A DNA stretch of 64,000 nucleotides from a plasmid, in assembly GCF_988242995.1 (NCBI RefSeq), contig NZ_OZ547044.1. One strand, written 5' to 3'. Made by a program: the position numbers. Positions 6,001 through 12,000 of this stretch are shown here, piece by piece. Positions within the stretch are counted from its first letter, which is position 1. The number at the start of each line of letters is the position of its first letter.

Positions 6001-9000
6001 CTGTACACCCGGCACATCGACCGGATGAGAAAGCCAGAGGTCTCACCGCTGGTCAGTATTCGCGACGGTATTCAGGTGGTGGCCGAGGTGCCGCGCCATG
6101 AAAAGGCCCGGCTGGAATGGGAAATCCTCCGGGATGATGAGATGTTTCGCCAGCAAAGGTGTGAGCTTACAGGCCTGACCGGACGGGTTATCAGCCGGGG
6201 GCTGTTGTATACGCCGGCGGTGATGCTGGTCGGTATCGGTATTCTCGCCTGGGGTTCCCCACAGGATGCCATCCGGCTGATTAATGCTCTTCGTAATATG
6301 CCTGCTGCGGAACTGGTGCATCAGATTGGTTTTGTCCTGTGCCACTTCCTGCAGATTAGCGTCATATCAGTTCTGATTGCTGATGTTGTAGCCGGGAGAG
6401 GACTGCCGAATGTATTTCGCCGCGCGTTGCTCGACAGGCTGCCGGCAGAGTTCTGCCTTATCAGAAGAGGGACAGAAAGATGAGGAAGACGACAGGAAAA
6501 CGCATCGGGAAAGAAAGGAACATCAGGGAATAAAATACATGGCAAAGATATTAATGATGGCGGGCAGTACCGTTGTTGTGCTGAGTTTGCTGGGATTTCT
6601 GGTGCTGCTTCTGAAAGGACGCGCAGTAACGAAGACTTCCCCGGTTCTGAGGTCACTGAAAGCCCTGGGTATTCGCCCCTCAGAGGCTGAGCAACGGTTG
6701 TGTCGCCAGCGGGTCTGGGTGGGTAATGACACACTGATGACGCCACGGGAACAACATTTTTTCCGGGCATTGCTGAGGCATACCAGCCGAACACGCTGGC
6801 TGTTGTGTCCTCAGGTCCGGGTGGCAGATATTGCCACACTCTCTCCCCATATCCGGCCACGATCCCGGACCTGGTGGCAACTCTTCCGGATGGCATCACA
6901 GTGGCACTGCGATGTGGTCATCGTTGACATCCATACCTTCGCTATCATCGGCGCAGTTGAACTGGATGATGCCTCACACCAGAAAAAACACCGTATCCGG
7001 CGCGATATTCTGCTGGAAGAGGTTCTGAGGCAGGCCGGCATTCCACTACTACGCGATCGGGATTCGGAGAGTCTGGTAAGAAAGGTCGGAGAGTTTCTGA
7101 AATACCGCGGAGCCGATGCAGCCGAAAAATCCATAACCGGTATGAATTCAACGACAGAGCATACTGAACGCAAGGAGAATGAAAAATGATTATCGCCGCC
7201 GAAGTGAAACGTGATGAACAGGGGTACTGGACACATCCTGCGCTGGTACGAAGTGGCTGTGAAACTTCCGCAGAATTAAGTTACTGGCTCAGAACCCATA
7301 AACTCCAGTGCTTTGTGATAACAATGCGCGATGAAGCGCCTGAAGCTTTCGCTGCCGGATTTACGGATGAAGCCCCGAATGCCCGTGGCTGGATACCGGA
7401 GCCACCGGATGATGATGGCTGGTTTCTGGGATCTGTCCACGATACCGGCGACGGACCCGTCTGCTACTGGTTTCGTCATACCACAAAATCCTGACGCCTC
7501 CGCATCGCGTCGTTGTCCAACCTCGGGAACGGGGAAAAGCCAGTTTCCCCGCTCCCGGCGTTTCTTAAACACCCGTTAAGGAAATACTGTGAAAAAAATG
7601 AACCGTACGCTCCGCAGATGTTGTCTGTCCGGGCTTATCAGCCTGTCTTTGTTTGCACCAGTTCCGGCCGTGTATGCCGCCAGCATCGAGACGGGGTATT
7701 CGCCGGAAGGAACGGCTCTGCAGCTGGTCCTGAAGACTATTAATTCTGCACAGCAGGAAATCCGGCTGATGGGCTATTCCTTCACCTCACCCGAAGTCGC
7801 CGGCGCGCTTGTCAGGGCAAAACAGCGTGGTCTCGATGTGAAAGTGGTTCTGGACTGGAAAGCCAATACAGGCAGGCAAAACAAGGCGAGTCTGGCGGCC
7901 ATGAATCTTCTGGTCAATGCCGGTATCCCGGTTCGCACAGTGTCGCAGTACAAAATCATGCACGATAAAGTCATTATTGCTGACGGCCGTAATGTTGAAG
8001 TGGGGTCTTTTAACTACACTCGAGCCGCTGATCGGTTCAATTCAGAGAACGTGCTAGTCGTGTGGGATGAACCAGTCGTTGCTCAACGCTATCTCCAGCA
8101 CTGGCAAACTCGGTGGGAGATGGGAAAAGACTGGAGTTCCTCGTATTAACCTCCTCGCTCAATAGCCTGCTCATTGCGCCAACAAGGGCAGGTTATATAA
8201 CAAAAAATAACGTAACTCTCGCTGCATCCAGCGACGTGTAGTATCTTTGTTCAAGTATTCAGTTATATGCTTGAGGAGGCAGAGATGTCACAGGTCGTTA
8301 ACGGAGTTACTTCCTCATCTAAACGTCCCTATAGGAAGGGCAACCCTGTTTCTGCGGCAGAACGTCAGCAGAAAGCTGTTGCCCGAAAAAAAGCGACGCA
8401 CAAAGAGGTGAGAGTATTTGTGCGGGACAAGCTTAAAAACCAGCTTCAAATCATGTGTGAGAATGAAGGAATTACTCAGGCAGCAATGATTGAGAGGCTG
8501 ATTGAAAGGGAATCTGCGAAACTAGGAATCGACGTAACGACGTCACATTCTTGATCATGCCTGCTATGAGTGCTAGATTACTGAACGTTTAGAATTCTTG
8601 GCTGGCCACACCATAAGGTGGCAGGGAGCTGGTTTTGTGGATGTTTACCCGGAACCAGAAAGTAAAAACCCCGATAATCTTCTTCAATCTTGGCGGAAGG
8701 AAAAGATTAACGGGGCCCTCATAAACTGCATAGAAGCTGTTGCTCTATGCAGGGAGTATATGTACATGCTCAGAAAACTTCAAGCTCAGTTTCTGTGTCA
8801 TTCGCTCCTTCTGTGCAACATAAGCGCAGGAAGCGGTGACTGATCATAACCAACAAAGCTCATGCAAGTATGTTCAGGTAAACAATCCTGAACCTGTTTT
8901 CACGGTTCCCCAGGACTACACTCCCTGGCCTTTCTCGCTGAAACTTATGGTAAAAGCCAATGGTTTCACTGAAAGCTTCAGTTTCGATATCGCATCAGCG

Positions 9001-12000
9001 ATGTCGCGTAGGGACGGAATACGAAAACGTAAACCCCCATTTTTGCGCCGCAGAGCGATGAATGCGTTGCTCATGGCGATGTGTTTTTATTACGATCCCC
9101 TGTCAAATAAAGTTCTGCGCTCACTCAGGGAGATTGCCCTGGAGTGCGGACTTGCAACTAAATCTCTTTCTGGCGAAGTGTCCATTACACGAGCAATCAG
9201 GGCACTGGAATCGCTGGAAAAAGATTTTGAATTTGTTGCCTGCTCATCGGATTGCTATTCAACTGCTGAGATTTTTTTCACCCCTAAGCTGTTCGAATTT
9301 CTTGGCGTATTTCCACTCTCTCTGAGCGAAGCCAGACTGAAGTGTCTGGCCGCCAAAAACAGCGGCAGGGAGAGTGCAGATGAGTAATGCGCACAATCCG
9401 CAACACTGGAGTCAGCTGGATATGGATGAACAGATCCGTTTCTGGCAGGGGGTAGAGGACGGCCATGTGGCATCTTTTCTGGTTTCCCCGGAGAAGAAAT
9501 CTACCCGTCGCCGGCGCGGCGAGCACTCCACAAAACCCAAATGTGAAAACCCGACCTGGTTTCGACCGGAGCATTACAAAAAACTGGGTGGCCAGCTGGG
9601 GCACGCCTATAACCGTCTTGTTCAAAAAGATCGCACCACTGGTGAGGTGCGACTGCGTATGCACGTATCGCTTCATCCGCTGTACGTCAGGGAACGTCGT
9701 CGGGCTGGCCGCCGGTATGGCTTCCGGCCGGAAAAGCAACGTCTGCTGGATGCTATCTGGCCAGTGCTGATCAGCTTCTGTGATGCCGGCAAGCTGACGG
9801 TCGGTATGTGTATTTCTCGTCTGGCAAAAGAACTCAGCCAGAAAGACAGTCATGGAAAAGTTATTCCGGAAACAGAGGTAACAGTCTCACGTCTGTCCCG
9901 GTTGATTGACGAACAGGTTCGTTTTGGTGTCCTGGCTGTATCTGAAGAAAATAGCTGGGACAGGGAATCCCGTACCTGGCTTCCTAAATACGTCTATATC
10001 ACCGCGTTAGGGTTTCAGATGCTGGGAGTGGATCTGGAAAAACTTGATGCGGAACAACAAAAAAAGCTCCGGCAAAGCGAAGAGCGTCGTCGTCTTATCG
10101 AGGAGGGGATTCTGCGTGAAGATGAGGAGATCTCCCCGTGTGCAGCACGTGAGCGCTGGTACCGTCAAAAAACTCTCGATGCACTGAGGTTCCGTCGGCA
10201 GCGTGGCGCCGAACGTAAACGAGCTAACCGCCTGGCCAGATATTCTCGTGAGCGCCAGATTCACGAAATGTCGCTTCATATCCTGAAGACAATGCCGGCA
10301 GACGAGGCTTACTGGTGTACAACGGAGCGGCTGCAGCAGCTGGCCATTCAGAACCTGTATCAGCGGCACTGTTGCAAATAGTCGGTGGTGATAAACTTAT
10401 CATCCCCTTTTGCTGATGGAGCTGTACATGAACCCATTCAAAGGCCGGCATTTTCAGCGTGACATCATTCTGTGGGCCGTACGCTGGTACTGCAAATACG
10501 GCATCAGTTACCGTGAGCTGCAGGAGATGCTGGCTGAACGCGGAGTGAATGTCGATCACTCCACGATTTACCGCTGGGTTCAGCGTTATGCGCCTGAAAT
10601 GGAAAAACGGCTGCGCTGGTACTGGCGTAACCCTTCCGATCTTTGCCCGTGGCACATGGATGAAACCTACGTGAAGGTCAATGGCCGCTGGGCGTATCTG
10701 TACCGGGCCGTCGACAGCCGGGGCCGCACTGTCGATTTTTATCTCTCCTCCCGTCGTAACAGCAAAGCTGCATACCGGTTTCTGGGTAAAATCCTCAACA
10801 ACGTGAAGAAGTGGCAGATCCCGCGATTCATCAACACGGATAAAGCGCCCGCCTATGGTCGCGCGCTTGCTCTGCTCAAACGCGAAGGCCGGTGCCCGTC
10901 TGACGTTGAACACCGACAGATTAAGTACCGGAACAACGTGATTGAATGCGATCATGGCAAACTGAAACGGATAATCGGCGCCACGCTGGGATTTAAATCC
11001 ATGAAGACGGCTTACGCCACCATCAAAGGTATTGAGGTGATGCGTGCACTACGCAAAGGCCAGGCCTCAGCATTTTATTATGGTGATCCCCTGGGCGAAA
11101 TGCGCCTGGTAAGCAGAGTTTTTGAAATGTAAGGCCTTTGAATAAGACAAAAGGCTGCCTCATCGCTAACTTTGCAACAGTGCCCGCCAGTACCAGCGCA
11201 GCCGTTTTTCCATTTCAGGCGCATAACGCTGAACCCAGCGGTAAATCGTGGAGTGATCGACATTCACTCCGCGTTCAGCCAGCATCTCCTGCAGCTCACG
11301 GTAACTGATGCCGTATTTGCAGTACCAGCGTACGGCCCACAGAATGATGTCACGCTGAAAATGCCGGCCTTTGAATGGGTTCATGTGCAGCTCCATCAGC
11401 AAAAGGGGATGATAAGTTTATCACCACCGACTATTTGCAACAGTGCCACAGAAAATTACCTGAACTGCGTCAACTCGGAGTCTGGCCGCGTGCGCGTGGA
11501 AGCAAAGCGGGCGAGCGAAGAATACGGGCGAGTGCTGCGGCGCTATCCGCTGAAACCCGGCGAGACGGTCGAGCGTCCGCAACGCGGGGAAGTCGTCAGC
11601 AGCTCCGGGGTTCTCCCCCCACTGGACCCAGGCGAATACTAAGCGCGGCGGTGTGTAATAGACGGAGCGCGAGGCGACTACTGGTCAGGGTTTGCGCAAG
11701 GCGGGTGTGTAATAGACGGGAGGGGATCGATCCGGCGATCCAGCCTGTGGATAGTCCGTCTATTACCCACCCGGTTCCGTCGTTTACCCACCCAACCCCG
11801 TCTATTACCCACCGGAAACCGTCTATTACCCACCGAGGGGTTCTATAAGCAACTGATAATGAAGGTAAATTTTGCCTTCTGATTCCCTAAAACTCTTTAA
11901 AACAAAAAAAACATATATAAAACGTGTAGCCCTGGGGAAAACAGCCCGTGGAATTATGGACAATCCGGCAAGCCGGATACCTGCCTAACCGCTTCGCGGT

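Follow-up and report, generated by a model that had tools for sequence, protein, structure and literature searches.

We analysed an IncFII-type replication locus in a 64-kb stretch of plasmid DNA (64,000 nucleotides of contig NZ_OZ547044.1; hereafter the window). The locus probably represents a naturally occurring form, with two cistrons, of the IncFII replicon family controlled by antisense RNA, and IS26 has dismantled it in this molecule. Behind a single control cassette stand two overlapping open reading frames (ORFs) of the RepA family: ORF1, which encodes a short RepA, and ORF2, which encodes a long RepA of the IncI-complex type. The same pair of genes is found in hundreds of plasmid records and in distant lineages. 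In the window, IS26 has taken the last codons of ORF2, and the origin that belongs with ORF2 lies 50.6 kb from it, in inverted orientation. The sequence has long been known and annotated and this instance of it is ordinary; its architecture varies a familiar type of replicon and has been too little described. The coordinates of all features are collected in Table 1.

Table 1 Features of the replication locus and of the IS26 rearrangement in the window
Feature	Position	Strand	Evidence or remark
copB/repA2, replication regulatory protein, 89 amino acids	8285-8554	+	NF010256, 126.5 bits (cut-off 87)
CopA-like antisense RNA	8660-8748	-	Rfam RF00042, 85.9 bits (gathering score 60), full-length model 1-92
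Promoter-like site for CopA RNA	8783->8755	-	TTGAAG-17-TATACT
tap leader peptide, 25 amino acids	8766-8843	+	TIGR03475, 59.8 bits (cut-off 35.05)
ORF1, short RepA, 183 amino acids, GTG start	8836-9387	+	Pfam IncFII_repA, model positions 6-178 of 275
ORF2, long RepA of IncI-complex type	9380-10381	+	NF040977, 302.2 bits (cut-off 70), profile 1-263 of 266
IS26 copy A	10365-11184	+	820 bp, same sequence as copy G; adjoins ORF2 by its left inverted repeat
IS26 fragment, 263 bp	11185-11447	-	IS26 positions 263..1; butted against right end of copy A
Displaced CIS-origin segment belonging with ORF2	60322-60999	-	95% identical to DNA after ORF2 in an intact plasmid (L003)
DnaA box TTATCCACA in displaced segment	60847-60855
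Hairpin GCCCCTGCCCGGGGC, then T run, in displaced segment	60974-60988
Target-duplication copy ATTTTTTC in displaced segment	60992-60999
IS26 copy G, inverted relative to copy A	61000-61819	-	Right inverted repeat abuts origin segment; same ATTTTTTC junction as pKDO1

One control cassette and two overlapping rep genes

An earlier note on this DNA had described an IncFII-type control region with repA2/copB, a tap leader and a coupled RepA1-like start, and each of these elements was found where it had put them. The window thus holds hallmarks of RepFIIA-like control, namely a CopA-like RNA, an upstream CopB/RepA2 gene and a tap leader. Plasmids identical over this region carry the MOB-suite label 'IncFII', and their annotation calls the copB product 'replication regulatory protein RepA'. 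The control region of the IncI complex, with Inc RNA, repY leader and repZ pseudoknot, was not found in the window: the leader is of the tap type, and the pseudoknot model PK-repZ (RF01087) scored 30.6 bits, below its gathering score of 44. Because the family scores exceed curated cut-offs and the 2.2 kb concerned are 100% identical in many plasmids, the set of elements lies far beyond chance. A phospholipase-D-family (NucT-like) gene (7589-8149) stands immediately 5' of copB, as it does in most of the related F-like replicons examined (L004, L007, L008, L011, L024).

The tap stop overlaps the GTG start of ORF1 at 8836 (GTGACTGA). This stop/start overlap is kept in canonical replicons, in those with a stand-alone long RepA and in two-gene replicons, and it suggests translational coupling from tap to rep. 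ORF1 stops after 183 amino acids, as the note had reported. For the second frame, the ORF listing gives a GTG at 9374 as the start; the start that is annotated and conserved in relatives is the ATG at 9380, which overlaps the ORF1 stop by 8 nucleotides (ATGAGTAA).

Many public plasmids carry the 2.2-kb stretch at 100% identity (432 records reach at least 99% identity and 506 at least 80% coverage), and the NCBI annotation of those plasmids gives two overlapping repA genes of 183 and 337 amino acids. The layout is also held over much greater distances. A short gene (183-192 amino acids) followed by a long one (337-339 amino acids), with a stop/start overlap of 8, 4 or 14 nucleotides, recurs in eight diverged lineages, with ORF1 identity as low as 37%. 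Lineages with both genes include Salmonella (L004/L005), Lelliottia (L006) and five metagenomic ones (L007, L008, L021-L023), the long gene of L021 ending at the contig edge after 318 amino acids. In the lineages compared, a purine-rich ribosome-binding site lies ahead of each ORF2 start, inside the 3' end of ORF1. The trees of the two genes are incongruent, Salmonella and Lelliottia being 83% identical in ORF1 and 63% in ORF2, which indicates that the layout persisted through exchanges of modules. In the most distant short-plus-long operons, L022 and L023, the stop that overlaps the start of the short RepA belongs to another leader peptide (MHYITQHPAAIRQGRRE-like), not to tap; the two-gene layout thus does not depend on the IncFII(K) control cassette.

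The long RepA and its origin

We infer that ORF2 encodes the initiator, a complete RepA of the IncI-complex type. It matches NF040977 (RepA_IncFII_LM), a long RepA clade that takes in the IncI-complex and IncL/M initiators, and an intact copy of the gene scored 307.1 bits over profile positions 1-266. A tblastn search with ORF2 found relatives in 4452 plasmid records. The protein is about 64% identical to the RepA of a plasmid in which IncI-gamma/K1 is the only replicon typed, which we take to be the RepZ of that group, and one source gives the name RepZ to a close relative. Identity is 43% to the IncL/M RepA of a pOXA-48-like plasmid, where IncL/M is the only replicon typed, and 71% to the stand-alone, tap-coupled long RepA of L011. 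Long RepA genes directly behind tap, with no ORF1, were found in L011, in p4_SCLZS62 and in a Shigella plasmid typed 'IncFII,IncI-gamma/K1', as well as in L024 and L030. The ratio of nonsynonymous to synonymous substitution rates (dN/dS), taken for pairs with unsaturated synonymous sites, was 0.08-0.19 for ORF2, pointing to a real gene under purifying selection. Our search for a solved structure related to ORF2 found none.

In the intact relative pMCR8_020135 (L003), a GC-rich hairpin with a T run lies about 28-35 nucleotides past the ORF2 stop, and beyond it come a DnaA box TTATCCACA at +161 and further conserved blocks. Every ORF2-type gene examined, whether or not ORF1 precedes it, has the hairpin and the further blocks behind it; the DnaA box is kept too, except in L011 (a one-base variant) and in the IncL plasmid (no match to the pattern used). 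All of these post-gene motifs align with the IncI-gamma/K1 plasmid, and the IncL plasmid aligns only in part. Since ORF2 is co-inherited with this origin, it would be the initiator for it. The 64% identity and the aligning downstream DNA mark the module as a RepZ-type initiator with CIS hairpin and DnaA-box origin, although CIS and origin are displaced in the window.

Canonical IncFII(K) plasmids share only positions 8216-8845 of the window (copB to tap), at about 88-90% nucleotide identity, and homology to them returns about 365 nucleotides past the ORF2 stop. This limited homology indicates that the exchangeable unit consists of ORF1, ORF2 and the origin core. The locus thus appears to be a mosaic of old date, in which an IncFII control region is joined to a rep-ori module of the IncI-complex type, and it is in this evolutionary sense only that the earlier suggestion of a recombinant rep gene holds.

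The short RepA

ORF1 corresponds to the first two-thirds of a classical IncFII RepA1, the part with the winged helix, and the basic C-terminal third is missing. The canonical IncFII(K2) RepA (285 amino acids, from L014) is colinear with ORF1 only, over residues 9-181 (45% identity, E 2e-46). Against the RepA1 equivalogs TIGR03474 and PRK13750, ORF1 scored 145.6 and 151.8 bits (cut-offs 446.9 and 478), covering profile positions 1-173 and 5-182, respectively, and ORF2 matched neither model. A full-length classical RepA1 initiator is thus absent from the window.

The short protein nevertheless bears marks of a maintained gene. Its predicted structure is a compact winged-helix fold with a predicted local distance difference test (pLDDT) score of 85. 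Thirty-five residues, several of them inside predicted helices, are invariant across its short and full-length homologues, and the length of the homologues is held at 183-192 amino acids down to 37% identity. With a dN/dS of 0.19-0.24 for pairs with unsaturated synonymous sites, ORF1 too appears to be a real gene under purifying selection. Given this selection and the confident fold, ORF1 is probably also a DNA-binding accessory, a regulator or co-initiator. The fuller proposal, that the short RepA of 183-192 amino acids functions as a second replication protein (a regulator or co-initiator that binds DNA by its winged helix and is made in fixed translational linkage with an IncI-complex-type initiator), is one that we advance tentatively, as a possibility somewhat short of probable.

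The strongest rival to that proposal holds that ORF1 is a relic, a translated spacer that carries ribosomes to the ORF2 start and whose protein has no function. ORF2-type initiators work without ORF1 in other replicons, the conserved features include the stop/start overlap and the ribosome-binding site, and the incongruent trees suggest a shuffling of modules, all of which a spacer would accommodate. A functionless protein would be expected to show a dN/dS of about 1, not about 0.2, and would hardly keep its invariant residues, its length and a confidently predicted compact fold. We therefore regard the relic as unlikely, though still to be reckoned with. A two-RepA IncFII(K) replicon, or a role for its short RepA, was described nowhere in the literature searched, which largely excluded subscription journals; the function of this conserved protein appears to be undescribed.

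An intact operon of this kind would work as follows. CopB would repress the rep promoter and CopA RNA would pair with the leader, blocking translation of tap, as family knowledge and the anatomy of the cassette suggest. Translation of tap would be coupled to the ORF1 GTG because the tap stop overlaps that start, and translation of ORF1 to that of ORF2 because of their stop/start overlap and the purine-rich ribosome-binding site inside the 3' end of ORF1. ORF1 would in this way hand the CopA/tap control on to ORF2, which would initiate at the conserved origin after the terminator-like hairpin and the DnaA box.

An IS26 rearrangement between ORF2 and its origin

The earlier note had the second frame continuing without a stop into the IS26 terminal repeat. 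The frame is indeed RepA-like and does enter the repeat, but IS26 removes only its last nine codons. Native ORF2 has 337 amino acids, its end being readable in L003 and in pKDO1 (L001). In the window, residues 1-328 are native (to base 10363), and the sequence ...QNLYQ then continues as RHCCK, which replaces the final nine amino acids (LELALAPPS); the stop codon TAG at 10379-10381 lies in IS26. The window contains seven complete copies of this element, 99.76-100% identical to each other. IS26 was recognised by its 820 bp, its 14-bp terminal inverted repeats (GGCACTGTTGCAAA) and its tnp26 gene, and matching records annotate an IS26-family transposase.

The plasmid pKDO1 shows what probably came before. 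There, a simple IS26 insertion with an 8-bp duplication (ATTTTTTC) separates an intact ORF2 from the hairpin, 24 bp past the gene. IS26 stands at this position or close to it in about 260 records, with the pKDO1-type junction in those that were listed. On the origin side, the window retains the junction of pKDO1 exactly, with the IS26 right inverted repeat at 61000 beside ATTTTTTC at 60992-60999. The ORF2-side junction lies 53 bp further in than in pKDO1, and the nine codons lost include the conserved LEL.L motif. This exact ORF2/IS26 junction was found in no PLSDB record.

The earlier note was also right that no origin is visible between ORF2 and IS26; an origin with a DnaA box stands directly 3' of the initiator in intact relatives such as L003, and IS26 occupies that place here. 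The origin was not lost, however. It lies inverted at 60322-60999, beside another IS26 copy and 50.6 kb from ORF2. The displaced segment matches pKDO1 over its first ~500 bp (a comparison by eye), and its replicon-type-specific part spans about 60656-60999. IS26 copies A and G, the outermost inverted pair, share a T at IS26 position 61 that is private to them; this and their opposite orientation fit a replicative IS26 transposition or a recombination giving inversion. The 263-bp IS26 fragment is the scar of a further IS26 event. An ancestral insertion of the pKDO1 type that separated ORF2 from the hairpin, together with later IS26 events, would thus have cost ORF2 nine codons and moved and inverted the origin. 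Such a separation has a parallel in NZ_CP020523.1, where another IS26 rearrangement parts the same ORF2 from its origin.

The 50.6 kb between copies A and G carry aac(3)-IIe, blaOXA-1, aac(6')-Ib-cr, tet(A), qnrB (37917-38561) and a Tn4401 with blaKPC (48876-49760, minus strand). A ProQ/FinO-family gene (59293-59853, minus strand) adjoins the displaced origin, and a classical finO lies separately at 4418-5026. In KPC plasmids like pKPCKP060, origin, ProQ/FinO and DUF2913 natively follow one another downstream in this order.

Activity of the replicon and maintenance of the plasmid

IncFII RepA and IncI RepZ proteins, as known from R1 and ColIb-P9, act preferentially in cis and need the region between the gene and the origin. 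Given this preference, the replicon in the window is most likely inactive, in agreement with the earlier suspicion that it may be non-functional, and the plasmid is most likely maintained by another replicon outside the window. Activity could persist if the clipped ORF2 acted in trans on the displaced, inverted origin, since everything but the last nine codons remains on the molecule and IS26 between ORF2 and the origin is very common. We judge this improbable, even a little more so than the relic discussed above: the five lineages aligned all share the lost C-terminal motif LYQ|LEL.L, the terminator-like hairpin, which is directly 3' of the gene in every relative, is now 50 kb off, the initiators of these families prefer cis action, and related rearranged plasmids carry a second replicon of the RepB family.

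The search for another replicon that the note had recommended found no other rep gene in the 64-kb window. The last 2181 bp (61820-64000) are 100% identical to positions 18277-20457 of the E. coli plasmid NZ_CP020523.1, which encodes a RepB-family initiator with ParA 9.6 kb beyond the stretch that matches the right end of the window. This colinearity suggests that a RepB-family replicon probably lies just past that end. At the right end itself, a resolvase/invertase gene remnant cut by IS26 (61820-62210) is followed by a gene for an SOS-response-associated peptidase (62257-62907).

We also considered whether the MOB-suite label 'rep_cluster_1418' denotes ORF2 as the sole replicon of pKDO1-like plasmids. 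This was unsupported: pHNLC3 has the identical replicon without the label, and NZ_CP020523.1 has its separate RepB-family initiator. According to a view relayed in the literature, FII replicons stay silent in the presence of FIA or FIB replicons (PMC4539522). An IncFII typing label on this molecule would probably mark a dead replicon, with maintenance, copy number and incompatibility likely set by another one, and the case shows IS26 reshaping the replication region itself.

Alternative explanations for the two rep genes

Two other accounts of the paired genes had been offered in the earlier note, and neither holds up. Two independent tandem replicons, each with its own control and the second cut by IS26, would explain the presence of two RepA-family genes, but we consider them highly improbable: copB, CopA and tap are each present only once, the ORF2 start lies within ORF1 and no control region, promoter, antisense RNA or origin separates the two genes, and intact relatives have a single origin, after ORF2. 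The genes instead form one operon under one cassette, in the order tap, short RepA, long RepA, each stop overlapping the next start. A single repA broken by a sequencing or assembly frameshift near 9370-9390, to which the abutting ORFs and their common match to the IncFII RepA family had pointed, can practically be set aside, because the split is 100% identical in hundreds of independent records and is shared by eight diverged lineages, no frame after 9387 encodes canonical RepA residues 182-285 (tblastn), the two ORFs overlap on the Pfam IncFII_repA model (6-178 and 112-243) rather than abut, and ORF2 by itself is a full-length family member.

A recent duplication was ruled out as the source of the pair, BLASTP finding no similarity between ORF1 and ORF2. 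A programmed frameshift fusing them is unlikely, as the overlaps of 8, 4 and 14 nucleotides give differing relative frames and there is no shared slippery site. The only fused form seen was protein P0025 (300 amino acids, on a 4.4-kb Logan contig), in which an ORF1 homologue continues in frame into the N-terminal part of an ORF2 homologue; an indel error in the assembly is the probable cause.

Several points weigh against a coupled two-gene replicon that IS26 has dismantled. The ribosome-binding site of ORF2 would be hidden by only a weak consensus RNA structure (-7 kcal/mol, with an unfavourable covariation term), so ORF2 may also initiate independently. ORF1 is not universally required, given the ORF2-type genes that operate without it. 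Matching 8-bp target duplications, from which the exact IS26 event could be read, flank none of the IS26 copies in the window. The occurrence of IS26 near the pKDO1 position in about 260 plasmids could mean that the replicon still works there; it could equally mean that they have a second replicon, as NZ_CP020523.1 does. Finally, the initiator role of ORF2, the coupling and any function of ORF1 are all read from sequence, and we found no experiment on this replicon type.

Significance and comparison with known systems

This replication module is common in Klebsiella plasmids. Typing by the CopA region lumps together three payloads behind one cassette: the classical RepA1, the long IncI-complex-type RepA, and the pair of short and long RepA. 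Initiators and origins cannot be swapped among the three, and predictions of incompatibility and host range need to take this into account. In plasmids of high clinical importance, the conserved short RepA poses a simple, testable question. Should it prove functional, a large F-like clade, including KPC and CTX-M carriers in Klebsiella, would use an experimentally undescribed two-protein initiator module.

The closest control region is that of R1/R100 RepFIIA and IncFII(K2). The components of the R1 basic replicon make up the textbook IncFII control cassette (PMC5883639), and the canonical IncFII(K2) replicon of pKpQIL and pKF3-94 has a single repA of 858 bp with a repA2 of 252 bp (PMC4539522). 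These replicons share with the window CopB, CopA and a tap whose stop overlaps the rep start, and ORF1 is 45% identical to residues 1-181 of their RepA. They have their own single 285-amino-acid RepA1 and origin, whereas the window type combines a RepA1-like protein of 183 amino acids with an initiator of 337 amino acids from another clade and the origin of that initiator.

The IncI complex (IncI1, B/O, K and Z; the repY-repZ-CIS-ori arrangement of ColIb-P9) resembles the window in the hairpin, in the DnaA box at about +161-167 nucleotides and in the origin blocks, as seen in IncI-gamma/K1. In this complex and in the IncL/M repB-repA arrangement, an upstream frame ends on the start codon of the initiator, as in the window. 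In the IncI complex, however, that frame is a leader peptide of about 29 amino acids, whereas in the window it encodes a folded protein of 183 amino acids under CopA/tap control.

The plasmids with a stand-alone, tap-coupled long RepA (E. hormaechei L011, R. planticola p4_SCLZS62 and S. flexneri NZ_CP020338.1, the last typed 'IncFII,IncI-gamma/K1') have the same cassette, initiator type and origin type, but couple tap straight to the long RepA without ORF1. The nearest relatives of all, pKDO1 (NC_019389.1) and about 260 related Klebsiella and E. coli plasmids, carry a 100% identical replicon and the same origin-side IS26/ATTTTTTC junction. pKDO1 has an intact ORF2 and a simple insertion, whereas in the window ORF2 is clipped and its origin lies 50.6 kb away, inverted.

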